Assembly (NCBI GenBank): GCA_050944875.1
Contig: JBMNRW010000002.1
Location: 1,009 to 65,008, forward strand
Direction: 5' to 3'
Source: Patescibacteria group bacterium
Lineage (GTDB): Bacteria; Patescibacteriota; UBA1384; JACPKC01
Length of the DNA stretch: 64,000 nt
The notes under the pieces were generated by a model. It saw nothing but the letters and a program-made list of their open reading frames with translations, was not told the DNA's origin and made no database searches. Position 1 is the first letter of the stretch. Every line of letters starts with the position of its first letter. The translations under genes were made by a program, and so were the position numbers. Below, one piece after another: positions 29,024 to 52,540 of the stretch.

Positions 29024-29064
29024 ATGCACCGCTTACCAGGAACGATGCGGGTGCATCGTTTTTT
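29024..29064 (+). promoter_or_regulatory. terminator-like hairpin + T6 in 16S leader (possible attenuator/antitermination target)
   Basis: GATGCACCGC...GCGGGTGCATC followed by GTTTTTT, located between promoter and mature 16S. Confidence 0.3.
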
Positions 29065-29221
29065 GTCGGCTTTCGGCCTCGAACCTGTAGCTTGAAAACT
29101 CGCACTCGTATACGACCAGCGTATATAGGTAAGGACCAATCGGGATTGGTTTCTCGGTTGGTTGGAAGATTGAGCCTCGCCGGGGTTATCCGGCGTGTGG
29201 TCACAACATGAAGTGACATCT

Positions 29222-30673
<1,452 letters not shown>

Positions 30674-30771
30674 TAACGGAATTTTGGTGCTTTGCTTGCA
30701 AAGTACCTACCGTAGGTCGATCTCTCACCTTGAGAGACCCTTTCAATCTTCCAACCATTGAGCGACCAAGT

Positions 30772-30800
30772 AAAACAGCGCCATTCGGCGCTGTTTTACG
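30772..30800 (+). terminator. hairpin + T-run about 100 nt after 16S 3' end
   Basis: AAAACAGCGCC-ATTC-GGCGCTGTTTT. Confidence 0.5.
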
Positions 30801-30862
30801 TTGCATTTGCTTGACGTTCTTCACTTGACCGAACCTGTTTCTTGGTAGAAAATGCCCGAAGT

Positions 30863-31309
30863 ATGCGCCCGTCGCTCCACGCCTTCACTTCGCGCCTCTC
30901 GCCTCGGCACTGGCGGCTGTTCGCCGCAGTGCTCGCCGTGGTGCTCGTGGCTGCGATCGCGTTGACCTGGCAGCGTAGCCAGGCAGAGGACGGGCGGAAA
31001 GTCGAAGCACTCGTGCTCACCGGCGAGGTGTCGTGGACGAGCGGCGACTTCCGCGTCGAGAACCGCGACCCGTTCGCGTGGAATCGCTGCAAGCTCGAGG
31101 TGAACGGCCAAAGCTACGGGGATGGGTACGGCTACCTCGTTGAGACTGTTCCTGCTGGCCGTCGGCTGAGCTTGCCGATGCGGGCGTTCTTGAAGGCTGG
31201 CCAGCAGTACGACGCAAGCCGCGAAGCGCCGGGCCGGTTCACGATCCGCTGCCAAGACGCGAACGGCCAGGTCGGCGTCTACGTCGGCCGCGCCAAGTCT
31301 GCCGAGTAA
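30863..31309 (+). CDS. hypothetical signal-anchored protein (about 148 aa)
   Basis: N-terminal TM/signal anchor (WRLFAAVLAVVLVAAIALTW); candidate TTGACC-N17-GAAAAT promoter just upstream. Confidence 0.45.
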   Translation: MRPSLHAFTSRLSPRHWRLFAAVLAVVLVAAIALTWQRSQAEDGRKVEALVLTGEVSWTSGDFRVENRDPFAWNRCKLEVNGQSYGDGYGYLVETVPAGRRLSLPMRAFLKAGQQYDASREAPGRFTIRCQDANGQVGVYVGRAKSAE

Positions 31310-31386
31310 TCTGACCCCATCCTGAGCGGGGTCTCGTGTGCTCGCCCCGTTCATCTGGTATCCTTGCTCCTGATGATGGAGGGGCA

Positions 31387-31776
31387 GTGACGATCCAATG
31401 GATCCAGGCGATTCCGTGGTGGTACCGGCATGTGCCGGCTCTGTTGGCGCATCACCAGCGCCTCATCTTTGAAACGGTTGTCGACTACTTCTCGTTCGCC
31501 ATCCTCCTCCGAACGCTCTTCGCCCCGTGGAAGCGAGACCAGCGCGCAACCGACCGGCTGACGATCCCAGAGTGGGTGCGGGTCTTCGGTGAGAACATGA
31601 TGACGCGGCTCGTCGGGGCGATCGTCCGACTGGGCGCCATGGGTGCTGGGCTCCTTTGCCTTGCGTTCCTCGCAGTGCTCGACGTCCTCATTTGGATTAC
31701 CTGGCTCGTCGCACCGCTCCTCGCACTTGGACTCATTGCGCTAGGCATTCTCACTGGGCTCGGGGGGATGCAGTGA
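31387..31776 (+). CDS. integral membrane protein (about 129 aa, 3 predicted TM helices)
   Basis: GTG start 4 nt after GGAGG; alternative ATG 31336; stop overlaps next start (GTGA). Confidence 0.45.
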   Translation: MTIQWIQAIPWWYRHVPALLAHHQRLIFETVVDYFSFAILLRTLFAPWKRDQRATDRLTIPEWVRVFGENMMTRLVGAIVRLGAMGAGLLCLAFLAVLDVLIWITWLVAPLLALGLIALGILTGLGGMQ

Positions 31777-34433: not shown

Positions 34434-34684
34434 GTTGTCTTTTGTATTCAGGGCTGGCGACGTAATGGATGCGGCCGACTCGCTTATTGGGTGCGAATTA
34501 AATTGCTCGTACGCACGATACCCGAACTTCCGTTAATCATGGCGTTTTGGTTCGTCAGCACTCCTTCCCGCACTGCAGCACAGCCATTCCTGTGACTGTA
34601 TTACGGGAAGTATTCACTCCCTGTTCCTCTAAGTGGATGGTTGCCTTTCTCATTGCATTCGCTCGCCAGGGTTCAATTTACCCG

Positions 34685-34713
34685 TTGAAGTTCAGGGCGC
34701 TGTTCGGTATACT
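34685..34713 (+). promoter_or_regulatory. promoter TTGAAG-N17-TATACT upstream of tRNA-Ile
   Basis: Hexamers 15 nt upstream of tRNA 5' end. Confidence 0.45.
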
Positions 34714-34727
34714 TGCCCCCGTAGTTT

Positions 34728-34804
34728 GGGCATGTAGCTCAGTTGGTTAGAGCGCGTCACTGATAATGACGAGGTCCCAGGTTCAAATCCTGGCATGCCC
34801 ACCA
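34728..34804 (+). tRNA. tRNA-Ile (anticodon GAT), CCA encoded
   Basis: Cloverleaf: acceptor GGGCATG/CATGCCC, anticodon loop CUGAUAA, T-loop GGTTCAAATCC. Confidence 0.95.
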
Positions 34805-34814
34805 GAGAAGACGA

Positions 34815-34839
34815 CCACGCCTAGGCGTGGCGTTCTTTT
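34815..34839 (+). terminator. weak hairpin (CCACGCC-TA-GGCGTGG) + CGTTCTTTT after tRNA-Ile
   Basis: Inverted repeat then U-rich tract; followed by TGGTATACT extended -10. Confidence 0.3.
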
Positions 34840-34858
34840 GGTATACTTGTGTTGTAAT

Positions 34859-35338
34859 ATGATGAATACGCCGCACATCCTGACGGGGGCAGCGATTGGT
34901 GTTGCAACCGGAAATCCAATCCTGGGGTTCTTGGGTGGTTTGGCGAGTCACTTTGTACTCGACGCGATCCCTCACACGGATCCAGGTACCTGGCATTTCG
35001 AGGAGCCGCTTCCGTTTAAGATTGACGAGCGTGACCTGACAGCGGCATTTATTGATCTCGCCATCGCGGCCGTCTTACTCGTTTGGTTGGCCGGTAATGT
35101 CCCGATCGCTGCGGCAGCGCCACTAGCTGCAATGTTTGGTGCGATATTGCCCGACATTTTTATTGTATCGCTCTTGTTTTGGCCTCGGCTCGTTACCGTG
35201 CCGGGATTTAGTCATTACGACAAGTTTAACCGTATGCTTCAGGCTCAATCGACAGCGAAACCACACCAGTGGGCACTCGGGATTCTTACGCAGGTCGCGG
35301 TGACCGTTGGGGCTGTATGGTTCTTACTCGTCTCCTAG
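34859..35338 (+). CDS. membrane-bound metal-dependent hydrolase (DUF457/YdjM-like), probably leaderless
   Basis: Motifs HILTGAAIG, SHFVLDAIPH, AILPDIFI; TGGTATACT 12 nt upstream of ATG. Confidence 0.55.
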   Translation: MMNTPHILTGAAIGVATGNPILGFLGGLASHFVLDAIPHTDPGTWHFEEPLPFKIDERDLTAAFIDLAIAAVLLVWLAGNVPIAAAAPLAAMFGAILPDIFIVSLLFWPRLVTVPGFSHYDKFNRMLQAQSTAKPHQWALGILTQVAVTVGAVWFLLVS

Positions 35339-35559
35339 TTTTTGCACTCTCGCTCGTCGTCGGGTTCTGGATGATCCGAAATTCGCTGACGCTCGTCGGA
35401 TGGTTCGGGCAGTTTAACTGGGCGGAGCGGTATCTTGGCACAGGGGGCAGTTACAGCGCTTGGAAGCTCTTTGGTATTCTTGCGATCGTCTTCGGTTTCC
35501 TGTACGCTGTCGGCCAGTTTGACATTGCTCCCGAGACAGTGGCGCCGCTCGGGCGGTAG
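35317..35559 (+). CDS. small membrane protein (80 aa)
   Basis: Two hydrophobic helices; overlaps previous gene by 22 nt. Confidence 0.4.
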   Translation: MVLTRLLVFALSLVVGFWMIRNSLTLVGWFGQFNWAERYLGTGGSYSAWKLFGILAIVFGFLYAVGQFDIAPETVAPLGR

Positions 35560-35562
35560 TAC

Positions 35563-35638
35563 GGGCCAGTAGCTCAGTTGGTAGAGCACCGCCTTTGCAA
35601 GGCGGGGGTCTGGGGTTCGAATCCCCACTGGTCCACCA
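35563..35638 (+). tRNA. tRNA-Ala (anticodon TGC) with G3:U70, CCA encoded
   Basis: Acceptor GGGCCAG/CTGGTCC with G3-U70 wobble, anticodon loop UUUGCAA. Confidence 0.95.
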
Positions 35639-35652
35639 ACTTATTCTATAAG

Positions 35653-35680
35653 AAAGAGGTTTTGGAACCTCTTTTAATTT
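35653..35680. terminator. bidirectional hairpin AGAGGTT-TTGG-AACCTCT + T-run between tRNA-Ala and convergent Zn-ribbon gene
   Basis: Perfect 7-bp stem, U-tracts on both sides. Confidence 0.5.
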
Positions 35681-35687
35681 AAGTGTA

Positions 35688-35948
35688 CTACTTCCACCTA
35701 TCGAGTTTTGGTATTCCCCGAGTAAGGAACCAGGCAAGCAAACCGTTCATACCATCTTTTTTCATCTCTTGTATGCAATACGTTTGGAATTTTTGTGCTG
35801 TATCAACTTCTGGCGGATTGAGAAATTTTCCTTTCTCGTAGCACATAGAACAATAGATTTTGCTAATTGAACCATCGGCATTTGTGCCCCCTCCTTTCTT
35901 GTCTTTTATCAATGGAAATCCACAACTTTGACAAATCTGGTTATTCAT
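35688..35948 (-). CDS. putative zinc-ribbon protein (Zn_ribbon_2-like: CQSCGFPL...CSMCY)
   Basis: 86 aa, about 35% GC; two CxxC pairs. Confidence 0.6.
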   Translation of the reverse strand: MNNQICQSCGFPLIKDKKGGGTNADGSISKIYCSMCYEKGKFLNPPEVDTAQKFQTYCIQEMKKDGMNGLLAWFLTRGIPKLDRWK

Positions 35949-36136
35949 TTGAACCCTTTCTATTTGTAGTTCGTACTTGCGGCTCCGCGCCCAGAGGCAT
36001 ATTCTGATACCTGTTTCTGGTGTCTGTTTGGTGAATGGATCTTTGCTGGTGCTTTTAAAGTAACTGGTGAAATTGATCTTAATAAATGAAATCGCAATAA
36101 CAGCGTATGGTAAAGGGTAATATTTCGTGGCGTACC

Positions 36137-36520
36137 TTACCCTTCATCGCGCCCGAGCGCTGATCCAGCGGCCCAGAGGCCAAGGGCTAGGTATAGGATG
36201 CCGTCGTATGGGTCTTCGAGTGCGAGTTCCATGAGCAGAGGGTCGCCAGCCGGGAGGAAGAAGCTCGCAGTGCCGAGGGCGAGGTAGACGAGCGCAATGG
36301 CGCCCACGAGGAGGCGCTGGAGTGGCCGTGGCGCTACTACGGCCGCGATGAGACTCAGTGCTCCTAATGCAAGCTGCACGAGGTTCTCGCGACCGCTGAA
36401 GTACCATGTCGCGCCGAACAGGCTTTCCTCAGGTGTTGGCCCGATGATACCGATAACGCCGAGGATGCTGAGGAGGATAAGCATCCAGCCGCCCCAGATC
36501 AGGAATGACTTCGTTGTCAT
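36137..36520 (-). CDS. small integral membrane protein (127 aa, 4 TM)
   Basis: ORF-track frame trimmed to Met-62. Confidence 0.5.
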   Translation of the reverse strand: MTTKSFLIWGGWMLILLSILGVIGIIGPTPEESLFGATWYFSGRENLVQLALGALSLIAAVVAPRPLQRLLVGAIALVYLALGTASFFLPAGDPLLMELALEDPYDGILYLALGLWAAGSALGRDEG

Positions 36521-37229
36521 AAATTCCTTTCGAGTACATCGGAGTAGTGTTGTTACTATACACCAGGTTTTGAATTGGCGGTCCGGGTATGCTTGTTGGC
36601 AAATCAATGACGAACGTGAATGGTTTATGTCAATTCTCGGCTGTGTTGGATGTGTGTTGACTTGAGGTGGTAGCAAATAGGCGCGAGCTCCCGCTGAAAG
36701 CATGCAGTTGCGAGCTAAGTTGGTCTTTATAGAAGCCGATCGGAATGATTATATTCCGGTTGATGTTGGGATCAAATCTTGCTCGGCCGCTGCATCACCT
36801 GTGGCGCGGGCGTTGGAGTAATTCTTGCGGTCAATACAACCAGCCTGGTTGTCCCTGCTCGTGATCGGTGCAGTATGTTTGGTCGGACGTATCACGTTCG
36901 TAGATGTTCTCGTTGTAGTGATGAACGCGGCGCCGTGGATATACGAGCGCGCGGTCTTTACGGGCAGAGGAAAATTGTCCGGTTGCAACCCAGTACCAGC
37001 GAGCGTCGTCAGCATCTTTGACTACAATGAATGAATTGGATCCGCGTTACAGAGCCTTATGGTACTTAGAAGGAATGTTAATAGATATTAGTGTTTAATT
37101 TTCTATTTTTTTTCTCCTTGTAAACTAGACAAAAATGAAATTATCCGTTATAGCTAGTCCAGCTTTCGGGACTTATTCGGTAATCCCGAATTGCAAATTT
37201 ACACACATCTAGAAACGAGGTGAGGGGAT

Positions 37230-37946
37230 TTGGCACATTTGATTGAGCTAATGTTTTGGTCGTTGTACGCAACGTGCTACGACGCATTGAGTCGACTCAA
37301 GGCGTATAAGGAAATGCAGGTTCGAACTCTGCAGCTTCTCTCACCGACGAGCGGCGAACAAATTCTCGATGCGGGGTCTGGAACAGGTAACTTGATCCGA
37401 GCAATCGAGGATATGGCTGAGGTTGTGGTGGTGGGGGTAGATTGTAATCCTGGTATGCTTGCGGTTGCAAAGCGCAAGCAGTTGAGGGCTACGCTCTGGC
37501 GGTGTGATCTCAACGAAGTTTTGCCGTTTCGTGACAGCACCTTCGACAAGGCTGTGTCGACGAACAATCTTTACGTCCTTGCCGATCCCGTGAGTGTGCT
37601 TAGAGAGTTTCGGCGTGTTTTACGGAAAGGGGGCAAACTCATCATTGTAAACCCCGTGCCTGGCTTTTCGCCCGGAAAGATTCTGCGCGATCATCTCGAT
37701 CGAACCAAGGATCTTTGGGGCTGGCTCGAGGTTGTTATCCATATACCACACATCATGGCGATCCTCTTGCTGAATTTGTTTATTGTGAACAAGGGGAGGG
37801 CGGGGAGTTACCATTTTGCCGATGTGGCGAAATGGCAGCAGTGGGTAAGAGACAGCGGGCTAAGTGTTGATCGTTTGGAGTTGGTGTATGCCGATCAAGC
37901 ACTGCTCGTATCTCTCGTGAAGGAGGAGGTGGTTCCAGGTGCATGA
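37230..37946 (+). CDS. class I SAM-dependent methyltransferase (Methyltransf_11/25-like)
   Basis: Motif I ILDAGSGTGNL, motif post-I VVGVDCNP, motif II; TTG start per ORF track (ATG 37251 alternative). Confidence 0.7.
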   Translation: MAHLIELMFWSLYATCYDALSRLKAYKEMQVRTLQLLSPTSGEQILDAGSGTGNLIRAIEDMAEVVVVGVDCNPGMLAVAKRKQLRATLWRCDLNEVLPFRDSTFDKAVSTNNLYVLADPVSVLREFRRVLRKGGKLIIVNPVPGFSPGKILRDHLDRTKDLWGWLEVVIHIPHIMAILLLNLFIVNKGRAGSYHFADVAKWQQWVRDSGLSVDRLELVYADQALLVSLVKEEVVPGA

Positions 37947-38613
37947 TTTGGCGATGTTGCAGCTTCATTCGGGTGGGCAGTTGCTGACGATTGACTTCGG
38001 CGCTCCGACGCTTCCGGATGAGTATTTCCAAATGTTTCGGCTGCGGCATGATCGGTACTTAGAGAAGGGTTATATCGCGGCGCGAGACGACGGCTTGGAT
38101 TATGACATCTACGACCAGCGAAAGCAGTGTCACTACGTAATTGCTTCCATCGACAGGCGCGTAGTTGGCACAGTGCGTTTGATTGTCGGCAATACGCTGC
38201 CGACCGAGGATTACTTCAGCTTTCATGAGCCGGATCAAATGCGCGAGTTGCCGCGTAGCTGTCGCGGTGAAGTGTCGCGGCTCGTCGTAGAGCGTGAAGC
38301 TAAACTAGCTCAGCATCTAATAACGATCGGGTTAGTATACACGCTGTACTTGATAGCCGAAGAGGGGCAGATCCTCGGAGGTTACCTGTACGTGAAGAAC
38401 TATCTCCGTCGAATTCTCGCCAGCCTTGGAATCCCGCTTCATGATGTTGGGAGCTATACGCTCAAGCACGCGCCGGATTATATGGCTGGATATTTCGCAG
38501 AGACACAGGAGCCGACTGCACCGCTGTACTTCCTTACAAAGGAAGTTGGTCAGGCAGCGATACTCTTGATAAACCAGGAGGCCAATGGCCGATCCTGGAG
38601 AAAAGTCTCTTAA
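37939..38613 (+). CDS. LuxI-family / N-acyl amino acid synthase-like GNAT acyltransferase
   Basis: FRLRHDRYLEKGYIAARDDGLDYDIYDQ...HYVIASIDRRVVGTVRLIVGN...RGEVSRLVV aligns with autoinducer-synthase conserved blocks (R..VF, E.DEYD, RLLP, ExSRFAV); RBS AGGAGGAGG. Confidence 0.55.
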   Translation: MHDLAMLQLHSGGQLLTIDFGAPTLPDEYFQMFRLRHDRYLEKGYIAARDDGLDYDIYDQRKQCHYVIASIDRRVVGTVRLIVGNTLPTEDYFSFHEPDQMRELPRSCRGEVSRLVVEREAKLAQHLITIGLVYTLYLIAEEGQILGGYLYVKNYLRRILASLGIPLHDVGSYTLKHAPDYMAGYFAETQEPTAPLYFLTKEVGQAAILLINQEANGRSWRKVS

Positions 38614-38620
38614 CTCCTTA

Positions 38621-38646
38621 GGGGCCCGTTGGGCCCCTTTTTCTTT
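38621..38646 (+). terminator. rho-independent terminator after the acyltransferase-like gene
   Basis: GGGGCCC-GTT-GGGCCCC + TTTTTCTTT. Confidence 0.55.
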
Positions 38647-38659
38647 CTGTTACACTGAA

Positions 38660-40882
38660 ATGGTCATGTGGACTTACAAAGAATTTCTCATTTTAGTTGC
38701 TATCGTTGTTACGATAGCAATGGCTGTTTTTGTTTGGTTGCGACAGCCGAAAAATCCGGTAAATATATTCTTTCTACTCGCATGCCTAAATGTGGTGGGA
38801 TGGGAAGTCGGGATTATTATCTTTCGAATCTCAGCCGATGGTTCAGCGGAGCTCTATTGGGGTCAGCTAATTCATTTTTTCGCGATTTTGATCCCTCTGT
38901 GTTTCTATGTCATGTTTTCATTCTTTCCAGCAGGGAAGTTTCGGGGAAATGCGATTGTTGTTTCGCTTGTTTCTTTACTAACCATTGTTTGGCTTTGGCT
39001 TGTCTTTTCAGAGAAATATATTTCCAGTTTAACATTGGTCGATGGCGTACGGGGATTGCGATATGAATGGTTATTCCTTCCGTATGTCGTACACATTTCG
39101 ATGTTATTCCTTCTTTGTTTTTTTGTGCTTGGCAGGGGTTTGCAAAGTAGCCGAGGAATTATTAGATCTCAATATCTCTACATGTTCCTCGGACTATTTG
39201 GTGCAAGTGGTGTTGGCTCATATTTGAATCTTTTTCTTGTAGGCATTGGTGATTTTCGGTTCAATTGGCTCGGGCCGTTATCGCCAATAATCATGATGGC
39301 ATTTATAGCGTATGCGATAATAGCACATCGTCTGTTTGATATTCGTGTCATTATTCGACGAACAGTGGTGTTCGCTGGATTGTCTGTATTCTCACTTGGA
39401 ATTTACGCCGCAATTATGTTTGCCGCCACGGCGCTTATTGGTGGCTCGGGTCGGTCAGTATTCTTAGCAAGTCAGTTTGTGCCAAACATGGTTGCTGTGT
39501 TCGCTATAGCGCTTGGCTTTGATCCACTTCGGAAGTGGCTAAGCAAGACGACCGATACTTGGTTATTTAAGGCAGATTACGACAAGGAAGCGCTCCTGGC
39601 AGCGCTCTCTAGGAATCTCGCCAACGCAGTAGATCTAATTGATGCCGTTGAGAGCATGATCGAAATTATGACTACTCAGATGCGTCTTGCGAGTGGTGCT
39701 GCCATTCTTGTGCAGCCAGCCGAGGAAGCAGGCATGTATGAGCTGAAGCAGCTGATTTCTGCCGGATATACTGAGCAACAAAAACGAGCTCTCGAGCTAA
39801 AGCCTAAAGACGCGCTTGTTGAGTTCTTTCAATGCGATAAAGACGGTAAGCATAAGTGCACTAGCCTAGTTGTAGTTGACGAGCTTGAGCGTCAGTATAG
39901 TGACTCCAGTTTTTTAGGGGCGCAAAAAGTACTGGCTGCGGCGCTCATCAAGCGATTGCGGGCGATTGATGTGGCGGTGGCAATACCACTTTACATCGCG
40001 CGCCGAGAGCCGGTCCCGACAGTGCCGGGGACGCCGCCTCAGTACAGGAAAGTTGAGACATTCATTGGCATTGTTGTCCTTGGCGAGAAGAAATCAGGTG
40101 ATGCTTTTACGGCTGAAGATTTGCGTCTATTAGAGATTGTTGCGAGTCAAACAGCTGGGGCAGTTGAAAAATCCCGACTCTTCGAAGAAGACCAGCTTAA
40201 GAGTGAGTTTGTTGCCGTGGCGTCTCATGAATTACTAACTCCGACGGCGGCTATGGAAGGCTATCTATCGATGATTTTGGATGAGGGCTTGGGCAAGGTG
40301 GATAAGCAGGCTCGGACGTACCTCGAGATGGTGTACTCGGAGTCCAAGCGACTCGCCGCCCTCGTGAAAGACCTTCTAAATGTTAGTCGAATAGAGCGGG
40401 GTAAGATTCTCGTTAATCCTGAGCCGATTGTTCTCGATGAAGTGGTCGAGCAGGTGCTCGCGAGCCTCAAGTTCCGGGCCGAAGAGCGGAAGATCTCGAT
40501 CCTATTCAAGAAGGCCGAACCACTCCCTAAGGTGATGGCAGACAAAGATAAGCTTGTTGAAGTGTTTGTGAATCTAATTGGGAACTCGATCAAGTACACG
40601 CCAGAGGGTGGAAAAGTAGAGATTGTAACCGAGGTGCAGGACGGATTCGTCGCTGTCTGTGTGAAGGATAATGGAATTGGGATGAAACCAGAGGACGCAC
40701 AGCACCTCTTTAGTAAGTTTTTCCGCGCCTCGAACTCTGACCAGACCGGTCAGGGCGGGACAGGGCTCGGTCTCTACATCACGAAGAACGTCATTGAACT
40801 CATGGGCGGGACGATCACAGTCAAGACGGCGCTTGGAAAAGGCTCGGCGTTTACCTTTACTTTGCCTGTGGTTAACGGGTGA
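38660..40882 (+). CDS. sensor histidine kinase with N-terminal multi-pass (7-8 TM) sensor domain, GAF-like linker, HisKA and HATPase_c
   Basis: H-box VAVASHELLTPTAAMEGY, N/G1/G2 boxes (NLIGNSIKYT, DNGIGM, GGTGLGLYI); about 40% GC; start uncertain (38585/38660/38741). Confidence 0.85.
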   Translation: MVMWTYKEFLILVAIVVTIAMAVFVWLRQPKNPVNIFFLLACLNVVGWEVGIIIFRISADGSAELYWGQLIHFFAILIPLCFYVMFSFFPAGKFRGNAIVVSLVSLLTIVWLWLVFSEKYISSLTLVDGVRGLRYEWLFLPYVVHISMLFLLCFFVLGRGLQSSRGIIRSQYLYMFLGLFGASGVGSYLNLFLVGIGDFRFNWLGPLSPIIMMAFIAYAIIAHRLFDIRVIIRRTVVFAGLSVFSLGIYAAIMFAATALIGGSGRSVFLASQFVPNMVAVFAIALGFDPLRKWLSKTTDTWLFKADYDKEALLAALSRNLANAVDLIDAVESMIEIMTTQMRLASGAAILVQPAEEAGMYELKQLISAGYTEQQKRALELKPKDALVEFFQCDKDGKHKCTSLVVVDELERQYSDSSFLGAQKVLAAALIKRLRAIDVAVAIPLYIARREPVPTVPGTPPQYRKVETFIGIVVLGEKKSGDAFTAEDLRLLEIVASQTAGAVEKSRLFEEDQLKSEFVAVASHELLTPTAAMEGYLSMILDEGLGKVDKQARTYLEMVYSESKRLAALVKDLLNVSRIERGKILVNPEPIVLDEVVEQVLASLKFRAEERKISILFKKAEPLPKVMADKDKLVEVFVNLIGNSIKYTPEGGKVEIVTEVQDGFVAVCVKDNGIGMKPEDAQHLFSKFFRASNSDQTGQGGTGLGLYITKNVIELMGGTITVKTALGKGSAFTFTLPVVNG

Positions 40883-40937
40883 CTTGTTTTATGGGAAACT
40901 ACTCGATACCGTTAGGGGGACAATAAAAAGGAGGCAT

Positions 40938-41306
40938 ATGGTTAAACGGGTGCTACTTATCGAGGATGATATTACTCTTCGGGACTTGTACTTCACCCGG
41001 TTTAGTATGGAGGACTTTGACCTCGAGGTTGCGACCGATGGCGAGGCCGGTCTCTCTAAGGTGAAGGAGTTTAAGCCAGATGCTGTCCTCCTCGACCTCC
41101 GCATTCCGAAACTTACTGGGTTTGAAGTGCTTCGTCGCATTAAGGAGGATCCGGAGATTAAGGACACTCCGGTCATCGTCTTTACGGCTCTCTCTGGTGA
41201 TGACGACCGGAAGAAGTGTATGGAGACCGGTGCCGCTGCATTCCTCTCGAAGGCCGAGACAATGCCGAAGGATGTCATCGAGAAGATGAAGGAAGTTATC
41301 GGGTAG
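40938..41306 (+). CDS. single-domain CheY-like response regulator (REC only)
   Basis: D-D-K pattern (DD at 9-10, D53 in LLDLRIP, T81, K103); RBS AAAGGAGG. Confidence 0.85.
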   Translation: MVKRVLLIEDDITLRDLYFTRFSMEDFDLEVATDGEAGLSKVKEFKPDAVLLDLRIPKLTGFEVLRRIKEDPEIKDTPVIVFTALSGDDDRKKCMETGAAAFLSKAETMPKDVIEKMKEVIG

Positions 41307-41323
41307 CAATGCACTTCTCGTAA

Positions 41324-41356
41324 GTACGCCTCCTCACTGGGAGGCGTACTTTGTTT
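41324..41356 (+). terminator. rho-independent terminator after response regulator
   Basis: GTACGCCTCC-TCACTG-GGAGGCGTAC + TTTGTTT. Confidence 0.55.
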
Positions 41357-41389
41357 CATGGCAAGTAAGAGTAGGTCGTCGATAATCCG

Positions 41390-41418
41390 TTTACGTCTTT
41401 GTACGCGGTAGGTACAAT
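41390..41418 (+). promoter_or_regulatory. promoter TTTACG-N17-TACAAT upstream of giant gene
   Basis: -10 TACAAT 5/6 to consensus; RBS AGGAGG then GTG 41448 (ATG 41430 alternative). Confidence 0.4.
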
Positions 41419-41429
41419 AGTTGCGAACT

Positions 41430-44400
41430 ATGCGTAGGAGGGCAGGGGTGGATAATCGACCAGTTGATATTCAATCGCTTGATGAACAATTAGCCGCAAT
41501 TCAACGATCGACAAGGACAACGCTGCCGGCGCTCTTGCCTGCGCACGAGTGGCTTCGCGCGAACTCACGATTGTACTATCGGTGGCATGCCCAGTCGTAT
41601 GCTGAGCCAATTCACAAGCTAACTGCCTGGGGCGTGGTCGCGCTGTCCGTTGTAAAGATTGCAGCAATTGTTGTGCCATTGGTTAGCTCGCCAGGCAGTT
41701 CGCTTGCGGCTTCGAGCTGGACTCAGGCCAGTCAGGTGGAATTTTTAACAGGGACGACGGCTGGTGCGGCCACAGTGACAAATCTAAATGGCGGCGCAGT
41801 GACGCTCAACTCGTCTCAGTTTTCGCATAAGCGATCGGTTACCATTGACAATACGAATGGCGGCACGCTGACAGACGCACCCGTAAGGGTCGAGCTTACA
41901 AGTGAGAATTTTGATTTTACTGCAGCACAGGCCGATGGGGATGATATTCGGTTTTATGCGGCTGATGATACAACAGCGCTTGAGTATTGGACGGAGAGCT
42001 GGAACGCGAACGACCAGGTAGCGACAGTGTGGGTGAAGCTCCCCTCACTAAATGCAGGAGCGTCGACGATCGTACATCTTTACTCGGGCAATCCAGTCAT
42101 TGAGGGTGGGAGCGCAGCGCCATTCTCGGTCACTCCATCAACGGCCAATATGAGTCTTTGGCTGGATTCGAGTACCTTAAGCCAGGTAGACGGAGCGGCG
42201 GTAGCTAATTGGTCAGATCGACGGGGTCTTGCCGCCGAGGCTACACAGTTAATTGAACAGCATCAGCCAACCGTGCAGACGAATGAGCTCAACGGACATG
42301 CGGTTGTTCGTTTTGATGGTTTAGATGACTTTGTTTCTTTTGGTAATATCGATGATATTCGGACGGTTTTTTGGGTGTACAAGTACAACCCGGAAGCCGG
42401 GGCAGCGCATCGTCCGATGCTTGGTCATTCGGCTGTGCATCATTTCCATGGAGACAGTGCACAAAACATTTGGGGTGAGGATAGTTCAAGCTATGTAACC
42501 AGTGGAACAACGCGACTACATGGGGCGTCGATTGACGGTTTATCTACCCAATTGCCGACGTCGTTTAAATACATGTCTCTTGTGACCACGGATAATACTT
42601 CGGCTGATTCTTTTGCCAAGGATCGAGATACGGGCAATATGTTTTCGGGAGATTTAGCTGAGCTTATTATCTACAACGCTGCGCTCTCTGATTCAGATGT
42701 TAAATCCATCGAGTCATACTTGAACGGTAAGTATTTCTCCGTGGTGACGGTCGGGGAGGCGACGACACTGGATTTAGGTGGAACGTACACCTCTTCGTCA
42801 CATGATACGGCGCAGTTCTCAGATTTTTCGACGCTCAGTTGGAATGCAGTGGTACCCACTGGCACTGAGATTAAGTTTCAGCTGCGGAGTGCAGAATCAG
42901 AAGCTGATCTTACTAACGCGACATGGTATGGCCCAACTGGTACGAACGATTACTACGTAACGCCTGATACCGTTGTCAACGAGATCTCAAACGGCAAGCG
43001 CTGGGTTCAATATCAGGTGACTTTGAGTGCGGTTGAGAACGGTACATTTCCTGTGCTTGAAAGCGTTACGCTTGCATATGATACAGCAAGTCTCATAGTC
43101 ACCGAGCCTACAGGCCTTGCGATGGGCGTATATACAGTAAACAATCTGACGATTAATGGCGGGCAGACGCTTACACTTGCGGGTGGTACAACGCTCAATG
43201 TGTTCGGTGACTTAGTCCTTGATGATGCTGGTGGCGCTTCGCAGATTGTTTGTCAGGGAAGTAATAAGGCAGAGCGGATCGACGGCGAGTGGGTAGGTCG
43301 GGGATGTGTGGTTAATGTAGCTGGCGACACCGTGATTGACGCTAATTCAGCCATCACAGCAGATGGTCAGGGTTATACTGGCACACATCGTGGTGCTGGT
43401 AATGGTCCAGGGGGTGCGCCTGCTGGCGGAATCTACGCTGGTCCAGGTGGAAGTTATGGCGGTGTTGGGAGCTATGGCAGAGAAGATGGTACCGACGGCT
43501 TGCCTGGTCAATCGTACGGGGATGCCTTAGAGCCAATCGATCTTGGCTCAGCCGGCGGAAGTAGTACAAGTATGTATAGCTCCGGCGTCGGTGGTTCGGG
43601 CGGGGGTGCAATTCGACTAGATGTTCAGGGTACTATAGAGCTGAACGGTGAAATCTCTGCCAATGGTGAAGATGGTACAGGAAGTGGTACTTACGGCTCG
43701 GGTGGTGGTTCGGGTGGTTCAATTTGGATTACGGCCGGAACGTTAACCGGTGGTGGCACCATTGCGGCGAATGGTGGTGATGGTCGCGATGGTGACTGGG
43801 ATGGTGGTGGTGGTGGTGGGCGGATCGCAATTCACTATACGACGAACAATGGTTTCGATTTTACAAATGTCACAGCAACGTTAGGCGGTGGCGGCTTAAA
43901 TGCTGGCGAGAACGGAACAACCTATGCGCTTGCGAACGGACACTTACTAGTGTGGCAGCGTCTTGCAGTGGAGGGCGGGCGCAGTCTCTCGTACAGCAGT
44001 GTTCTCATTGAGAACGGCTCGTTGTTTGTGGTAGGCGGAGATAGTTCGCTGACGATTAGCGAGGACTTGACGGTAACGGGGGGCTCAACTCTGCAGCTTG
44101 AGGGTGCAAATCGCACAGGGAAGGTTGACGACCAGTGGCGAGGCACAGGCGTTGCAATTAATGCTGGAGATCTCGTTATTGATGCCGGTTCATCTATTAC
44201 GGCAGATGGTCAGGGTTATACTGGCACACATCGTGGTGCTGGTAATGGTCCAGGGGGTGCGCCTGCTGGCGGAATCTACGCTGGTCCAGGTGGAAGTTAT
44301 GGCGGTGTTGGGAGCTATGGCAGAGAAGATGGTACCGACGGCTTGCCTGGTCAATCGTACGGGGATGCCTTAGAGCCAATCGATCTTGGCTCAGCCGGCG

Positions 44401-47400
44401 GAAGTAGTACAAGTATGTATAGCTCCGGCGTCGGTGGTTCGGGCGGGGGTGCAATTCGACTAGATGTTCAGGGTACTATAGAGCTGAACGGTGAAATCTC
44501 TGCCAATGGTGAAGATGGTACAGGAAGTGGTACTTACGGCTCGGGTGGTGGTTCGGGTGGTTCAATTTGGATTACGGCCGGAACGTTAACCGGTGGTGGC
44601 ACCATTGCGGCGAATGGTGGTGATGGTCGCGATGGTGACTGGGATGGTGGTGGTGGTGGTGGGCGGATCGCAATTCACTATACGACGAACAATGGTTTCG
44701 ATTTTACAAATGTCACAGCAACGTTAGGCGGTGGCGGCTTAAATGCTGGCGAGAACGGAACAACCTATGCGCTTGCGAACGGACACTTACTAGTGTGGCA
44801 GCGTCTTGCAGTGGAGGGCGGGCGCAGTCTCTCGTACAGCAGTGTTCTCATTGAGAACGGCTCGTTGTTTGTGGTAGGCGGAGATAGTTTGCTGACGATT
44901 AGCGAGGACTTGACGGTAACGGGGGGCTCAACTCTGCAGCTTGAGGGTGCAAATCGCACAGGGAAGGTTGACGACCAGTGGCGAGGCACAGGCGGTGTAA
45001 TTAATGCTGGAGATCTCGTTATTGATGCCGGTTCATCTATTACGGCAGATGGTCAGGGTTATACGGGAGTATGTCATGGCGCCCCGAACGGTCCTGGCGG
45101 TGCAACTGTCGGTGGCTTCCATGCTGGTCCGGGTGGAAGCTACGGTAGCTTGGGAAAATATGGCAACGCGAATGGCGCTGATGGTACGCCAGGTCAAACG
45201 TACGGTAATGCCTATGCGCCAATCGACCTCGGCTCAGCTGGTGGAGGTCTATCGAGCACCGGCGGTTGTGGCATTGGTGGCTCGGGCGGTGGTGCGATTC
45301 GGCTTTATGTTCAGGGTACTTTAGAACTGAATGGAGAGATTACTGCCAACGGCTCTAATGGTGCGGGCGGCGGCGGTGGTTCTGGCGGCTCGATTTGGAT
45401 TACAACCGGAACATTAACTGGAAGTGGATCTGTGGCCGCAAATGGCGGTAACGGTGACCCGGCCAATAGTGCCAACGGTGGTGGTGGTGGTGGACGGATT
45501 GCAATAGGCTATGAGGAGCGTGTATCTGATTCCACAACCCGGTCAGCCGTTTGTGGTGCAGGCGGCTGGACGACAGGGTCGCAAGGCACGATCGTTTTTG
45601 GCGCACTGCCTCAGGTAAATTTAACTACTGAAGATGGGGCTATTATGCCTGCGCGACCGACCTTGAGTTTTTCTGCGTCGCATCCAGAGGGCAGGCAACT
45701 ATACATGAGCATACAGTATGTCGCGCGAGTTGGAGCTGATTGTTCGGAAGATGATTTTAGTGCTGCTGAAACAATCGATTCTGCGGCTATGAGTGAGGGC
45801 TGGAGTTCGGACGGCCTGTATGAGACGACTAGTGGTCCGGCGGCGGCTTCTTATACATTTACCGACGACCTTGGAAGTGGTTACTACTGCTGGCGCGCGA
45901 CGAGCCGCGTATCGATCGACGGATATACTGAGTGGGCTCGTTGGTCTGCTCCGCTTAGCTACGTTGTCGATGCGGCTCAGCCGGCAGCAGTGGTGCTCTT
46001 TACGGACTTTGATATGTACTACACTGATTCCAGTGCAATCCCAACATCCCTTACGGGAACGTCTGTTGATGATGATCAGGGCATGGGTTTGTATGCCAAT
46101 AGCTCAACATTCGCTGTATCGCGGGCACACGATGGAAAGTATTGGGATGGGACAGATTGGGCGAGTAGGCCGGTATATTTATCAACTACTCATCCTGCAA
46201 CAGAAAGTACCCACCAAGCTATTACGTGGAATTCGGCGGTGCAGTTGCCCAACTGGGAGGAGGGCGTATATACAATTCGTGTTCGTGCGATTGATAAGGC
46301 TGGCAATATGCTCACGATCCCCGCGGCCGGGTTTACGTACGACGAGACGCCTCCAGACGATATTGAAGAGGTTAGGGACGGTGACGATGAGATCGACGAC
46401 GACTTCACCGCCACGACGAGCGAGCTCGCTGCGAACTGGGTTGAGACCAATGACGCGACCGCGGGGCTCGAGCGCTACGAGTACGCAGTCGGCACCACTG
46501 ATGGCGGCTCCGACGTGCTCGGCTGGACGAGTAACGCGACGAATGTCACCATGACCGTGGAGGGTCTATCGCTCGCCGAGGGGGAGCAGTACTACGTCGC
46601 AACGCGGGCGATCGATCGCGCGGGAAACATTACGTCGATCTCGTCCTCGGACGGCATTGTCCCAGACGTCACGCCGCCAACGGCAGTGCCGGTCGTTGAC
46701 GAGCAGAAGACGGGGACGGACAACGGGCTAGTCAACTCAACGACGACGCTTTCCTTGACCTGGGAAGCTGCGACAGATGCGATCTCGGGAATTCAGAAAT
46801 ACCAGTACGCGCTTGGGACGACGCCCGGTGCAACCGATGTCGTGACGTGGACTGATAGTACGGCGCAGATTGCCAGCGTCAGTCGTACGGCTGGCTCCAT
46901 CGGTGTCGCAAACGCAGCGACAACGTATGAGCAGAGCGTGACGGGTTTGAGCCTCTCGAACGGCACAACGTACTTCGCGTCGGTCCGCGCGGTCGACAAT
47001 GCGGGGAACGCGTCAGCGCCGAAATCAACGGATGGAGTGACTGTCGATACGACGGCTCCAGATGCTCCGGTTATTACCTCGCCGGCTGCTGGCGCGACCG
47101 TCACCGACAGTACGCCAGTCATTACCGGAACGGCCGAGGCGAATAGCATAGTTGAGGTCAGGGTGAATGGCCGGACATATACGGCGGCAGCTGATGTGAA
47201 TGGCGGCTGGGCGGTTGAGGCAACAGACCCGCTGACTGCTGGCGTTCAGAACGATCTCGTCGTCCGAGCGATCGATGGCGCGGGGAACGCTTCAGTGAGG
47301 GCTGAGCGAAAGTTTGTCTACCAGGTGATTGCTCAAGGGATGATTATCGACTACCCCGAGGATGAGTCAGTCGTACTTGATCCAGTGACGGGAATGACCA

Positions 47401-49058
47401 TTCCGGTCGATGAGCGCTCCCTCGCGCCACGGATTGCGCTACAGGTGCGAGGCGTGACATTTAGCCTCGGCGATCCTCGCGTCGCCGAGCTGTTCCGTGG
47501 TGACGACGTCACTGTCATCGTAACGACCCCGCTTGGGAAGACGACCACCGGCGTACGCATCGACATCGCGGGCGTGGTGTACGAGCTCACGCTCCAGGAT
47601 GACGGGACGTACCGCCGGACGCTCACCTCGACCGAGATTGGCGATGCGACGACCGCGATCGTGACGCTCACATACGCTGATGGGATGACGGAGCAGCTCG
47701 CGATGGCGCTCCTCATTAACCCGTACGGCTACGTGTACGCACTCGATCGTGAGGGTCGGGAGATCCGAGTAAAGGACGCAGCTGTCCGTCTTGAGGTGCA
47801 GGGGGAAGATGGGTGGCAGCTCTGGGATGCCAGCCGCTTCGGCCAAGTGAACCCGCAGCAGACGACGCAGCAGGGTGAGTACGCGTTCGTCGTGCCGGCT
47901 GGTACGTACCAACTCGTTGTGACCGCGACCGGCTACCGAGGGTACTGGAGCGAGCCGCTGGTGGTGCTTGGTGAACCGATCAATCTGAACGTCCGCCTCG
48001 TCGAGCAAGGGGCAATCGAGCAATTCCTCACCGGACTCATTGGCACAGGAAGGGAGAGTGCGGTTGGCCAGCTGGTGGTGCAGCCGGCCGCGCAAACTGC
48101 GAACGCCGTTGCAGTATCGTTCGTCGCCCTTGTCACGCTTGGACTTGCGCTCGCGCCGACGCTTGTGGCCGGTGCATCAATCGCACCAGCGCTCGCGATG
48201 GCTGGCACTGCTGGCGCAGGCGTCGGTGCGAGCGGAGCGGGAATAGGGGCAGCAGGCGCTGCTGGTTCTGGCGCAGTCTCGCCGCTCACGAGCCTTATCT
48301 TCGCCATCACCTCGTGGTTCCGCCGGCACCGCCGCTACGGCCGGGTGTACGACGCAGCGACGAATATGCCGGTGGCAGGTGCAACGATCCGCCTCATTTC
48401 AGAAGGCGCGTGCGGGATCGAGAGCGGGAAGCTCATCGGGACGCAGGTAACGAATACCTTGGGGTACTATCATATTTACGCCGCGAAGGGCGCGTACCGC
48501 ATCGAGGTAATTGCCCCGAACTACGCATTCCCGTCGAAGGTTGCCCTGTTCGGGTACAAGGGCGAGGTGAAGTCGCTGCCGAGCGGCGGACTCTTGAATC
48601 CGGATGTTCCGCTCGACGGCCGGACGAAGCAGAACGCCGACGTGCTGGCGAACCTCCGGAGTGTCGCCGACCGCATCCGCAACGCCCGACTCCTCTTCCT
48701 CGTGCTTGGGACGATCGTTGCCCTTGCCTTTACCGTACTCGCGCCGTCGTGGCTGAGTGGTGCGGTGCTCGCAGTCTACGGCATGCTCTGGCTCAACGAC
48801 CTGTGGACTGTTGCTCGAGCGCGGCGTCGCGCGCTGGTGCTCTCTGACGGGAAGCCGGTTTGGCTCGCGATCGTCCGAGTGTACAACGAGGCGAAAGAAC
48901 TCGTCGCGACCTGCTCAACGGACAACCATGGGCAGTTCAGCGTCCTCCTTGCTCCTGGGAACTACGCGATTGAAGTTATGCAGTCCGGCCATAAGCTCCT
49001 CCGGAAAACCGTGCAGCAACCAACCCACGGCGACCTGAAGGTGACGCTCCGAGTCTAG
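41430..49058 (+). CDS. giant multi-domain cell-surface protein (about 2,540 aa): N-terminal TM, DUF2341 + LamG-like, 2.5 Gly-rich beta-helix-type repeats, FN3/Ig-like repeats, C-terminal TM cluster with two CarboxypepD_reg-like domains
   Basis: DUF2341-like IRFY...LEYWTESWN...ATVWVKLPSL; LamG-like ...GDLAELIIYNAALSD; repeat units with GGAI-like motifs; repeated Y.YA.GTT.G..DV..WT...RA.D.AGN modules; GRVYDAATNMPVAGATIRL and NHGQFSVLLAPGNYAIEV. Confidence 0.8.
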   Translation: MRRRAGVDNRPVDIQSLDEQLAAIQRSTRTTLPALLPAHEWLRANSRLYYRWHAQSYAEPIHKLTAWGVVALSVVKIAAIVVPLVSSPGSSLAASSWTQASQVEFLTGTTAGAATVTNLNGGAVTLNSSQFSHKRSVTIDNTNGGTLTDAPVRVELTSENFDFTAAQADGDDIRFYAADDTTALEYWTESWNANDQVATVWVKLPSLNAGASTIVHLYSGNPVIEGGSAAPFSVTPSTANMSLWLDSSTLSQVDGAAVANWSDRRGLAAEATQLIEQHQPTVQTNELNGHAVVRFDGLDDFVSFGNIDDIRTVFWVYKYNPEAGAAHRPMLGHSAVHHFHGDSAQNIWGEDSSSYVTSGTTRLHGASIDGLSTQLPTSFKYMSLVTTDNTSADSFAKDRDTGNMFSGDLAELIIYNAALSDSDVKSIESYLNGKYFSVVTVGEATTLDLGGTYTSSSHDTAQFSDFSTLSWNAVVPTGTEIKFQLRSAESEADLTNATWYGPTGTNDYYVTPDTVVNEISNGKRWVQYQVTLSAVENGTFPVLESVTLAYDTASLIVTEPTGLAMGVYTVNNLTINGGQTLTLAGGTTLNVFGDLVLDDAGGASQIVCQGSNKAERIDGEWVGRGCVVNVAGDTVIDANSAITADGQGYTGTHRGAGNGPGGAPAGGIYAGPGGSYGGVGSYGREDGTDGLPGQSYGDALEPIDLGSAGGSSTSMYSSGVGGSGGGAIRLDVQGTIELNGEISANGEDGTGSGTYGSGGGSGGSIWITAGTLTGGGTIAANGGDGRDGDWDGGGGGGRIAIHYTTNNGFDFTNVTATLGGGGLNAGENGTTYALANGHLLVWQRLAVEGGRSLSYSSVLIENGSLFVVGGDSSLTISEDLTVTGGSTLQLEGANRTGKVDDQWRGTGVAINAGDLVIDAGSSITADGQGYTGTHRGAGNGPGGAPAGGIYAGPGGSYGGVGSYGREDGTDGLPGQSYGDALEPIDLGSAGGSSTSMYSSGVGGSGGGAIRLDVQGTIELNGEISANGEDGTGSGTYGSGGGSGGSIWITAGTLTGGGTIAANGGDGRDGDWDGGGGGGRIAIHYTTNNGFDFTNVTATLGGGGLNAGENGTTYALANGHLLVWQRLAVEGGRSLSYSSVLIENGSLFVVGGDSLLTISEDLTVTGGSTLQLEGANRTGKVDDQWRGTGGVINAGDLVIDAGSSITADGQGYTGVCHGAPNGPGGATVGGFHAGPGGSYGSLGKYGNANGADGTPGQTYGNAYAPIDLGSAGGGLSSTGGCGIGGSGGGAIRLYVQGTLELNGEITANGSNGAGGGGGSGGSIWITTGTLTGSGSVAANGGNGDPANSANGGGGGGRIAIGYEERVSDSTTRSAVCGAGGWTTGSQGTIVFGALPQVNLTTEDGAIMPARPTLSFSASHPEGRQLYMSIQYVARVGADCSEDDFSAAETIDSAAMSEGWSSDGLYETTSGPAAASYTFTDDLGSGYYCWRATSRVSIDGYTEWARWSAPLSYVVDAAQPAAVVLFTDFDMYYTDSSAIPTSLTGTSVDDDQGMGLYANSSTFAVSRAHDGKYWDGTDWASRPVYLSTTHPATESTHQAITWNSAVQLPNWEEGVYTIRVRAIDKAGNMLTIPAAGFTYDETPPDDIEEVRDGDDEIDDDFTATTSELAANWVETNDATAGLERYEYAVGTTDGGSDVLGWTSNATNVTMTVEGLSLAEGEQYYVATRAIDRAGNITSISSSDGIVPDVTPPTAVPVVDEQKTGTDNGLVNSTTTLSLTWEAATDAISGIQKYQYALGTTPGATDVVTWTDSTAQIASVSRTAGSIGVANAATTYEQSVTGLSLSNGTTYFASVRAVDNAGNASAPKSTDGVTVDTTAPDAPVITSPAAGATVTDSTPVITGTAEANSIVEVRVNGRTYTAAADVNGGWAVEATDPLTAGVQNDLVVRAIDGAGNASVRAERKFVYQVIAQGMIIDYPEDESVVLDPVTGMTIPVDERSLAPRIALQVRGVTFSLGDPRVAELFRGDDVTVIVTTPLGKTTTGVRIDIAGVVYELTLQDDGTYRRTLTSTEIGDATTAIVTLTYADGMTEQLAMALLINPYGYVYALDREGREIRVKDAAVRLEVQGEDGWQLWDASRFGQVNPQQTTQQGEYAFVVPAGTYQLVVTATGYRGYWSEPLVVLGEPINLNVRLVEQGAIEQFLTGLIGTGRESAVGQLVVQPAAQTANAVAVSFVALVTLGLALAPTLVAGASIAPALAMAGTAGAGVGASGAGIGAAGAAGSGAVSPLTSLIFAITSWFRRHRRYGRVYDAATNMPVAGATIRLISEGACGIESGKLIGTQVTNTLGYYHIYAAKGAYRIEVIAPNYAFPSKVALFGYKGEVKSLPSGGLLNPDVPLDGRTKQNADVLANLRSVADRIRNARLLFLVLGTIVALAFTVLAPSWLSGAVLAVYGMLWLNDLWTVARARRRALVLSDGKPVWLAIVRVYNEAKELVATCSTDNHGQFSVLLAPGNYAIEVMQSGHKLLRKTVQQPTHGDLKVTLRV
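43357..45058 (+). repeat. two near-identical 843-bp tandem direct repeats (about 99% identity) inside the giant gene, followed by a diverged third unit to about 45,590
   Basis: Identical spurious ORF pairs offset by exactly 843 nt in the six-frame track (43336/44098+, 43354/44197-, 43922/44765-) and direct sequence comparison. Confidence 0.85.
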
Positions 49059-49164
49059 ACTGCTAGCTCGGAGCGTTGGCCAAGGGCTTGACAACGACAG
49101 AAACCAATCGTACGATGCGCGAGGACATGACGAATTCACGGAACAACCAGGAGGAAAACGGCCG

Positions 49165-49193
49165 TTGAACTTCGCCGCAACGTGTGGTATGTT
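49165..49193 (+). promoter_or_regulatory. candidate 23S-5S promoter TTGAAC-N17-TATGTT
   Basis: Hexamers about 170 nt upstream of 23S processing stem. Confidence 0.4.
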
Positions 49194-49359
49194 CCGGCCG
49201 CCTCGAGCGGTTTTTACTTTCCTTCCCGCCGGCACCCTGCTGACTCACCCGAGTCGCCAGAGTAGCGCCGAGAAGCGTCACCTTGAAAAGCTGGAAATTG
49301 AGACTATGGCAATTGCACCGAGAAGAATTCTCTGAATGAATTGCGGCCGAAGGTCGTAG

Positions 49360-52375
<3,016 letters not shown>

Positions 52376-52423: not shown

Positions 52424-52540
<117 letters not shown>

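Follow-up and report, generated by a model that had tools for sequence, protein, structure and literature searches.

Why does a GC-rich genome of the candidate phyla radiation (CPR) carry, among its ribosomal RNA (rRNA) genes, a long tract of markedly lower guanine plus cytosine (GC) content? We explored this question in 64,000 nucleotides (nt) of a Patescibacteria group bacterium (assembly GCA_050944875.1, contig JBMNRW010000002.1, positions 1,009 to 65,008 of the forward strand), referred to here as the window. An initial annotation had described the tract (35640-46300) as a genomic island inserted immediately 3' of a tRNA-Ala gene, containing genes for a Zn-ribbon protein, a membrane protein, a methyltransferase, a LuxI-like acyltransferase, a sensor kinase, a response regulator and the first part of a giant surface protein. 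Our analysis supports a different history. We think it probable that a CPR relative of lower GC (~50%) supplied the homologous region in place of ~11.5 kb of this genome (roughly 34.75-46.31 kb).

The low-GC block is real and lies far beyond chance, both in window GC and in codon usage. Across the backbone, GC has a mean of 0.636, a standard deviation of 0.012 and a minimum of 0.614 (40 windows of 2 kb, rRNA left out), while the 2-kb windows of the block have GC values of 0.477-0.548 (z = -7 to -13). In a 1-kb profile, the window stays at 0.61-0.67 GC except for two rRNA stretches and a trough from ~34.4 to 46.3 kb. Block GC is 0.40-0.57, with a mean of 0.508 over 35640-46300, rather than the 35-50% initially given. 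GC at third codon positions (GC3) is 0.75-0.90 in 15 backbone genes and 0.39-0.64 in every gene from 34859 through the first 4.9 kb of the giant gene. The relative synonymous codon usage (RSCU) of the block correlates with that of the backbone at r = 0.38 and with that of lower-GC relatives at r = 0.54-0.61, while the C-terminal 2.75 kb of the giant gene reach r = 0.92 with the backbone. The block also has positive GC skew and negative AT skew. Transcription-driven C-to-T bias within the rRNA operon was considered as a cause of the low GC and ruled out, since a ClpC-like gene that also lies among the rRNA genes shows no loss of GC.

We next located the edges of the tract. The right edge, previously placed at ~46.3 kb inside the giant gene, is exact. 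A maximum-likelihood analysis of third-position GC puts the change-point at nt 46308, in frame inside the 2545-codon open reading frame (ORF), with GC3 of 0.42-0.44 to the left and 0.71 to the right, climbing to 0.74-0.84 within ~100 nt. The left edge was thought to follow tRNA-Ala, but low GC begins ~0.85 kb further left, and the compositional change lies between 34433, the end of the ClpC-like gene, and 34859, the start of a gene for a protein of 159 amino acids (aa). Both genes between the two tRNAs already have low GC3 (0.58 and 0.64) while the ClpC-like gene holds GC3 near 0.8 almost to its end. Thus, the left edge of the low-GC tract is tRNA-Ile (34728-34804, ~34.75 kb), not tRNA-Ala.

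Is the gene content of the tract foreign to this group of organisms, as its composition is to this genome? The closest relative that we recovered is represented by two European Nucleotide Archive (ENA) assemblies (L004/L083 and L005) and is 96.6% identical to the window over the 16S region (28965-30802), 73% in ClpC, 84% in TF and 95% in ClpP. The gene order in this lineage is PGK, TF, ClpP, 16S, 154 aa, 130 aa, ClpC, tRNA-Ile, 160 aa, 73 aa, tRNA-Ala, methyltransferase, FeeM-like protein, seven-transmembrane (7TM) kinase, regulator and giant gene; the 23S gene of L004 lies beyond the sequence obtained. This is the order of the window, save for the Zn-ribbon gene and the adjoining membrane protein gene, which are without counterparts in L004. 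Identities to the L004 lineage are 47% for the methyltransferase, 53% for the FeeM-like protein, 65% for the kinase, 85% for the regulator, 77% for the 159-aa protein and 39-49% for the giant protein. In L083, a gap of 100 N (18444-18543) lies within the giant gene, and 6PGD and ABC-transporter genes come next, in place of 23S.

More distant relatives extend this picture. A third lineage (L084, GC 0.52) has the kinase (67%), the regulator (90%) and the giant gene, and comes closest to the window block in protein identity. On L010, a groundwater contig of more distant origin, the kinase and regulator pair stands 3.5 kb upstream of 23S. A Berkelbacteria genome (L006, ClpC 56% identical) has 16S, two ORFs, ClpC, tRNA-Ile, two ORFs and tRNA-Ala, followed by other cargo (Yip1, DUF1761, a short-chain dehydrogenase and PBP) before 23S, and its homologue of the 159-aa protein, at the same position, is 53% identical. 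The shared gene order and position in relatives mark the slot and its core cargo as inherited features of the clade, not as a new insertion. The initial annotation had itself allowed that a low-GC block universally present and syntenic in all relatives would be ancestral and not acquired; by that standard, gene content and position are inherited within the clade. The composition of the block is likewise native in the L004 lineage, since backbone and block have similar GC3 there (0.40-0.56 and 0.39-0.58). The relatives have 47-52% GC, with ~49% for the L004 genome.

These comparisons leave little room for an integrase-mediated island at the 3' end of tRNA-Ala that later lost its integrase and attachment repeats, a history that we regard as largely refuted and very improbable. 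The tract does have the atypical base composition and codon usage of an island and adjoins a tRNA. Moreover, the 1.5 kb after tRNA-Ala, with the Zn-ribbon and membrane protein genes, are absent from L004, and the slot between tRNA-Ala and 23S holds different cargo in L006. Against this, scans with Pfam and NCBIfam of all ORFs at 34.8-49 kb, including ORFs of at least 60 aa in the gaps, gave no integrase, transposase, relaxase or other mobility domain. With up to 3 mismatches allowed, the 64 kb contain no second copy of the 24-nt 3' end of either tRNA-Ala or tRNA-Ile, and no plasmid or phage DNA similarity was found for the block. The initial annotation had also reported no integrase, transposase or tRNA 3' repeat, which these scans uphold. 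The low GC begins upstream of tRNA-Ala, and the core genes occupy the same site in the relatives; no empty target site was seen in the closest relative (L004/L005/L083), where it is filled by the methyltransferase, FeeM-like protein, kinase, regulator and giant gene. The tract therefore resembles known tRNA-associated integrative islands in beginning next to a tRNA gene, but differs in lacking an integrase and direct repeats, in having the same genes at the same site in relatives and in running from tRNA-Ile to the inside of a gene.

We looked for the source of the block through its kinase. In a search of 5.8 billion proteins, the closest homologues (52-67% identical) came from the syntenic relative, one Patescibacteria-labelled contig and metagenome contigs, and the next best was 36% identical; none of the matches was named as a Firmicute, in contrast to the Firmicutes-like donor first suggested. 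The same search returned neither a high-GC "native" copy of the kinase nor a second close copy. Since the kinase family is confined to the clade (52-67%, then 36% or less), a donor would probably be a relative. A scan of metagenome contigs with the kinase alignment gave relatives at up to 52% identity and no donor, and a scan of genome contigs with the ClpC-like protein gave one unrelated 42% match without synteny.

The contig is part of a metagenome-assembled genome (MAG), which raises the question of whether the junctions exist in the organism. A Logan contig assembled with k=31 (SRR31066179_64097, L079) matches window positions 45035-49504 at 100% identity and runs unbroken through 46308 into 23S. 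The restart of the Logan contig after an 843-nt repeat had been predicted at nt 45035, and the contig was then found via its partial protein. De Bruijn assemblers normally produce a branch and a contig end where k-mers are shared by two populations. The low-GC/high-GC junction at 46308 exists in sequenced DNA and is not a product of the MAG assembler, because this independent contig spans it unbroken.

Could the tract nonetheless be a chimera of two co-occurring related populations, of 64% and ~50% GC and with the same gene order, joined at tRNA-Ile and 23S? The source is a MAG contig of 107,019 bp, and rRNA operons are classic points of chimera formation. The left edge lies at a conserved tRNA that also interrupts the k=31 Logan contigs from two samples, and the 843-nt repeat, with its exact stretch of 688 nt, is hard to resolve by short reads. 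The right junction, however, lies in frame in a fast-evolving ORF, away from conserved RNA genes, and is the one spanned by SRR31066179_64097; the remainder would need two misjoins in addition to real recombination. The lack of a high-GC kinase copy or second close copy among the 5.8 billion proteins also speaks against two populations. We consider a chimera improbable.

We propose instead a homologous replacement, which the initial annotation had offered as its fallback and which the codon usage of lower-GC relatives and the sharp in-frame breakpoint now favour. The locus has syntenic homologues, a conserved flank usable for crossover (tRNA-Ile) and a sharp composition breakpoint. The host is a CPR/Patescibacteria genome of ~64% GC with a variable cargo slot between tRNA-Ala and 23S, which in this organism and its nearest relatives contains the methyltransferase, FeeM-like N-acyl synthase, 7TM kinase, regulator and giant surface protein. 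The left crossover would have been anchored in the conserved tRNA-Ile and its promoter; the right one, at nt 46308, would have kept the reading frame of the giant gene. The giant protein would then be a chimera, its N-terminal two-thirds foreign and its C-terminal third native and membrane-anchored. The giant proteins of the window and L083 align collinearly across the junction (residue 1629), in keeping with an allelic in-frame crossover. We infer that the transfer was into the high-GC lineage and that it proceeded by recombination, probably after DNA uptake. Patescibacteria are reported to retain genes for competence and homologous recombination, and most of their gene exchange is reported to take place within the group (PMC12455944).

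The same synteny is also what would be expected of an ancestral, vertically inherited locus that missed the genome-wide GC rise of its lineage. The outgroups lie near 0.48-0.52 GC, which suggests that GC rose in the window lineage. Since all of them are at 47-52%, the 64% of the window would be derived. In such a history, the GC rise might have come about through recombination-associated biased gene conversion, with a hypervariable signalling/adhesin locus recombining too rarely to take part. The locus is syntenic in the nearest relative, with a divergence (47-85% amino acid identity) that is unremarkable for accessory genes; identity to L083 is equal on both sides of 46308; and the backbone is a mosaic relative to a high-GC sister contig, with the window becoming AT-richer than the sister toward the block.

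Several features argue against such a lag. Synonymous sites should be saturated between lineages at 73-84% protein identity, so that vertical inheritance would have left the block time to take on the GC3 of the genome. Low values also occur in conserved, recombination-capable genes of the tract (GC3 0.59 in the regulator and 0.58 in the 159-aa gene), the transition within one ORF spans ~100 nt, and the ClpC-like gene of the same rRNA region is fully GC-rich. To our knowledge, a GC3 gap of ~0.3 is much above the biased-gene-conversion effects reported in bacteria. We therefore rate vertical inheritance with a composition lag as unlikely, if less so than an assembly chimera. Replacement is the simplest reading, because the GC3 of the block is not genome-like and the transition is abrupt and in frame.

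Some observations weigh against replacement all the same. The searches brought no donor allele to light; the best matches to block proteins have 47-90% amino acid identity, no closer than vertical descent from an ancestor shared with L004 predicts. On both sides of the 46308 junction, the giant protein shows the same identity to its L083 counterpart. The left junction lies in a tRNA of 77 nt at which the contigs of both Logan assemblies end, and its placement rests on the MAG contig and on parsimony. The tract may also be composite, because the Zn-ribbon gene and the adjoining membrane protein gene have no counterpart in L004. Finally, a protein from another Logan assembly (P0241) is 97% identical to the 159-aa protein; if that sample represents the high-GC sister lineage, the replacement took place before the two lineages separated and is not very recent. 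The insertion had earlier been called "probably old", which is doubtful in turn, since the tract is essentially un-ameliorated.

The high-GC sister itself is known from a contig of another sample (L078, GC 0.64), which ends inside tRNA-Ile. Over 30463-34764, identity between window and sister is 99-100% at 30463-31662, falls to 91-96% within the ClpC-like gene and reaches 81-87% close to tRNA-Ile, and the window grows AT-richer than L078 toward the block. A left breakpoint just 3' of the ClpC stop codon, where identity to L078 falls to ~80%, was considered and dropped; the spacer is clearly of the L078 type and the drop fits neutral divergence. The shift from 99-100% to 91-96% within 4 kb indicates that recombination is evidently active in this lineage and that its backbone is a recombination mosaic. 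The tRNA-Ile gene is identical to that of L004 over its full length and to that of L078 as far as the contig reaches, and window, L004 and L078 all retain the upstream boxes. Directly upstream of its true tRNA-Ile (~4367-4410), L078 carries a 12-nt duplicate of the 5' end of this tRNA (GGGCATGTAGCT) followed by a 43-nt insert. The duplicate may be the scar of an event at this tRNA.

Taken further, the comparisons allow a more tentative proposal, which we regard as possible rather than probable. The locus could be a clade-wide cassette slot framed by the near-invariant tRNA-Ile, tRNA-Ala and 23S promoter, in which a signalling/attachment locus is swapped between species ~15 GC points apart. The RNA genes would serve as portable homology arms, and in-frame crossovers would remodel a giant host-interaction protein. 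Pneumococcal capsule (cps) loci and enterobacterial O-antigen clusters undergo allelic switching by homologous recombination in conserved flanks. The locus shares with them a fixed position, atypical and usually lower GC, alleles that differ among relatives and, as proposed here, block exchange through crossovers in conserved flanking sequence without integrase or attachment sites. It differs in that the left flank is a tRNA of the rRNA operon and the right crossover would lie inside a cargo gene, making the giant protein a chimera. Its cargo, moreover, is a putative signalling module with an adhesin-like protein rather than a set of polysaccharide synthesis genes, and the searches found no donor allele. 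If the proposal is true, the position of the locus among rRNA genes could also link its expression to growth state.

We then examined the genes of the block. The identities first assigned to the Zn-ribbon protein, methyltransferase, LuxI-like acyltransferase, kinase, regulator and giant protein agree with Pfam, the acyltransferase being FeeM/autoinducer-synthase-like. For the membrane protein, the hydrophobic sequence bears out the description, while Pfam gave no match. Two genes on the minus strand follow tRNA-Ala: the Zn_ribbon_2 gene (35688-35948, 86 aa, PF12674), whose GC of 0.39 is the lowest in the window, and the membrane protein gene (36137-36520, 127 aa), recognized from its hydrophobic sequence alone. 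Together they form a variable sub-slot 3' of tRNA-Ala (35688-36520), with no homologue at the site in L004/L083. Proteins on other contigs match the Zn-ribbon protein at 73-87% identity, and the two of these contigs that we read (87%, GC 0.446; 80%, GC 0.56) showed no CPR synteny and gave no clue to a donor.

The remaining genes lie on the plus strand. A class I methyltransferase dependent on S-adenosylmethionine (37230-37946, Pfam Methyltransf_11) is followed by a 224-aa protein of the FeeM N-acyl amino acid synthase/LuxI-like GNAT type (37939-38613). The latter matches Pfam FeeM at 62.6 bits and just passes Autoind_synth (25.0 bits, cut-off 24), stays far below the cut-off of TIGR03694 (48.8 against 112) and has a weak match in the Protein Data Bank (PDB) to the autoinducer synthase 5w8a. 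It resembles both LuxI and FeeM synthases, and would be better described as a member of the FeeM family than as LuxI. Next come a HisKA_7TM sensor histidine kinase (38585-40882) and a receiver-only response regulator (40938-41306, GC3 0.59), both assigned by Pfam. The Pfam scan found no LuxR-type regulator in the locus, which has a two-component pair instead. The arrangement thus differs from LuxI/LuxR quorum sensing, with a synthase paired with a methyltransferase and a 7TM two-component kinase and no LuxR-type receptor. Because the putative N-acyl synthase and methyltransferase sit beside genes for a 7TM kinase, a regulator of one domain and a giant surface protein anchored in the membrane, the gene arrangement suggests a locus for small-molecule signalling tied to a cell-surface or host-contact function, a putative signalling-plus-attachment module.

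The giant protein (41421-49058, plus strand, 2545 aa) contains DUF2341, Ig-like/Big and CarboxypepD_reg domains. Its low-GC N-terminal part of 1629 codons (41421-46307, GC3 0.44-0.48), which includes DUF2341, is of the imported type, and its high-GC C-terminal part in the same ORF (46308-49058, GC3 0.71) is of the native type. The junction falls at the motif RAIDKAGNMLT, near a recurring AIDxAGN motif. Within the N-terminal part, an 843-nt tandem repeat is present in two near-identical copies (43359-45064) that share the 688-nt exact stretch, with a third, diverged copy from 45006 that is 69-77% identical over the stretches compared. This repeat was identified by a repeat search and offset comparison, as it exceeds the period limit of 500 of Tandem Repeats Finder. 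The Logan contig breaks exactly at the repeat edge, and the repeat copy number in the MAG contig may consequently be unreliable. When the full-length giant protein was used as a query, matches to Gly-rich/Ig-like repeats dominated the result, and even the orthologue of the L004 lineage was not recovered.

The flanks reveal a context that the initial annotation did not include. The 16S and 23S/5S genes flank the region, so that tRNA-Ile and tRNA-Ala are rRNA-spacer tRNAs and the low-GC block lies inside a split rRNA operon. The RNA genes are in the order 16S (29221-30672), tRNA-Ile(GAU) (34728-34804), tRNA-Ala(UGC) (35563-35638), 23S (49379-52363) and 5S (52424-52540), all on the plus strand, as assigned by Rfam and, for the tRNAs, also by ARAGORN. 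The 16S-23S spacer (30673-49378) measures 18.7 kb and holds at least 12 protein genes, with the rRNA genes spread across 23 kb. Unlinked rRNA genes, defined by a 16S-23S distance of more than 1500 bp, are frequent in Patescibacteria (10.1101/705046), and the distance in the window is far beyond this criterion. Unlike the split operons of that description, the window retains the canonical 16S, tRNA-Ile, tRNA-Ala, 23S, 5S order on one strand, its interspersed protein genes are conserved to the Berkelbacteria level, and tRNA-Ile and 23S apparently have separate conserved promoters. The 16S gene spans 1452 nt and covers the full Rfam model RF00177 (1466 bits), which fits the small CPR 16S described in PMC9297842. 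The spacer of L006 is comparably expanded, with both rRNA genes on one contig, and L004 is alike from 16S onward. Just 3' of its 16S gene, L006 also has a group-II-intron-like Rfam match with a LAGLIDADG ORF (7890-8914).

Five protein genes on the plus strand accompany the RNA genes before the tract's core cargo. Two small conserved ORFs (30863-31309, 148 aa; 31387-31776, 129 aa) lie between 16S and the ClpC-like gene; they have native GC3 (0.72-0.81), homologues at the same position in L004 and L006, and 99-100% nucleotide identity to L078 (30863-31776). They are followed by a native ClpC/ClpB-like double AAA+ ATPase (31773-34433, 886 aa; Pfam AAA_2, ClpB_D2-small and AAA). Its sequence is the same as that of NCBI MGI6103235.1, a protein of a Patescibacteria MAG in which the block proteins bear neighbouring accessions on the same contig, which IMG contains as well. 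Two small membrane-protein genes (34859-35338, 159 aa, GC3 0.58; 35317-35559, 80 aa, GC3 0.64) lie between the tRNAs. These five rRNA-interleaved genes are kept out to Berkelbacteria-level relatives.

A promoter scan on the plus strand found promoter-like boxes, TTGAAG-17-TATACT, upstream of tRNA-Ile (34685-34713) and a promoter-like TTGACAAC box ~290 nt upstream of 23S (49088-49116). The latter is unchanged in three lineages, the window, L006 and L010. The terminator noted earlier after tRNA-Ala is visible in the sequence directly 3' of the gene as a 9-bp hairpin followed by a T-rich tail, TAATTT (35653-35680), and a 13-bp hairpin stands 3' of both the 16S gene and the response regulator gene. 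The conserved promoter-like boxes of tRNA-Ile and 23S, together with the hairpins after tRNA-Ala, 16S and the regulator, suggest that the rRNA genes are transcribed separately. The 23S leader contains a further conserved hairpin, GCCGC...GCGGTTTTT.

The locus offers a specific and testable example of probable homologous exchange between species in an uncultured CPR bacterium. For this group, almost all that is known about recombination comes from inventories of genes. It indicates that compositional island predictors can mistake allelic replacement at a conserved slot for an insertion, and it draws attention to an rRNA region filled with protein genes that are conserved across a CPR clade. The difference between the window and L004/L083 of ~15 GC points (0.636 against ~0.49, with backbone GC3 of ~0.8 against ~0.45) is unusually large for such close relatives. 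This gap between relatives at 96.6% 16S identity provides a natural system for the study of rapid GC change and amelioration. If the replacement took place as we propose, a giant surface protein, of a kind thought to mediate host attachment, can be rebuilt by an in-frame crossover.

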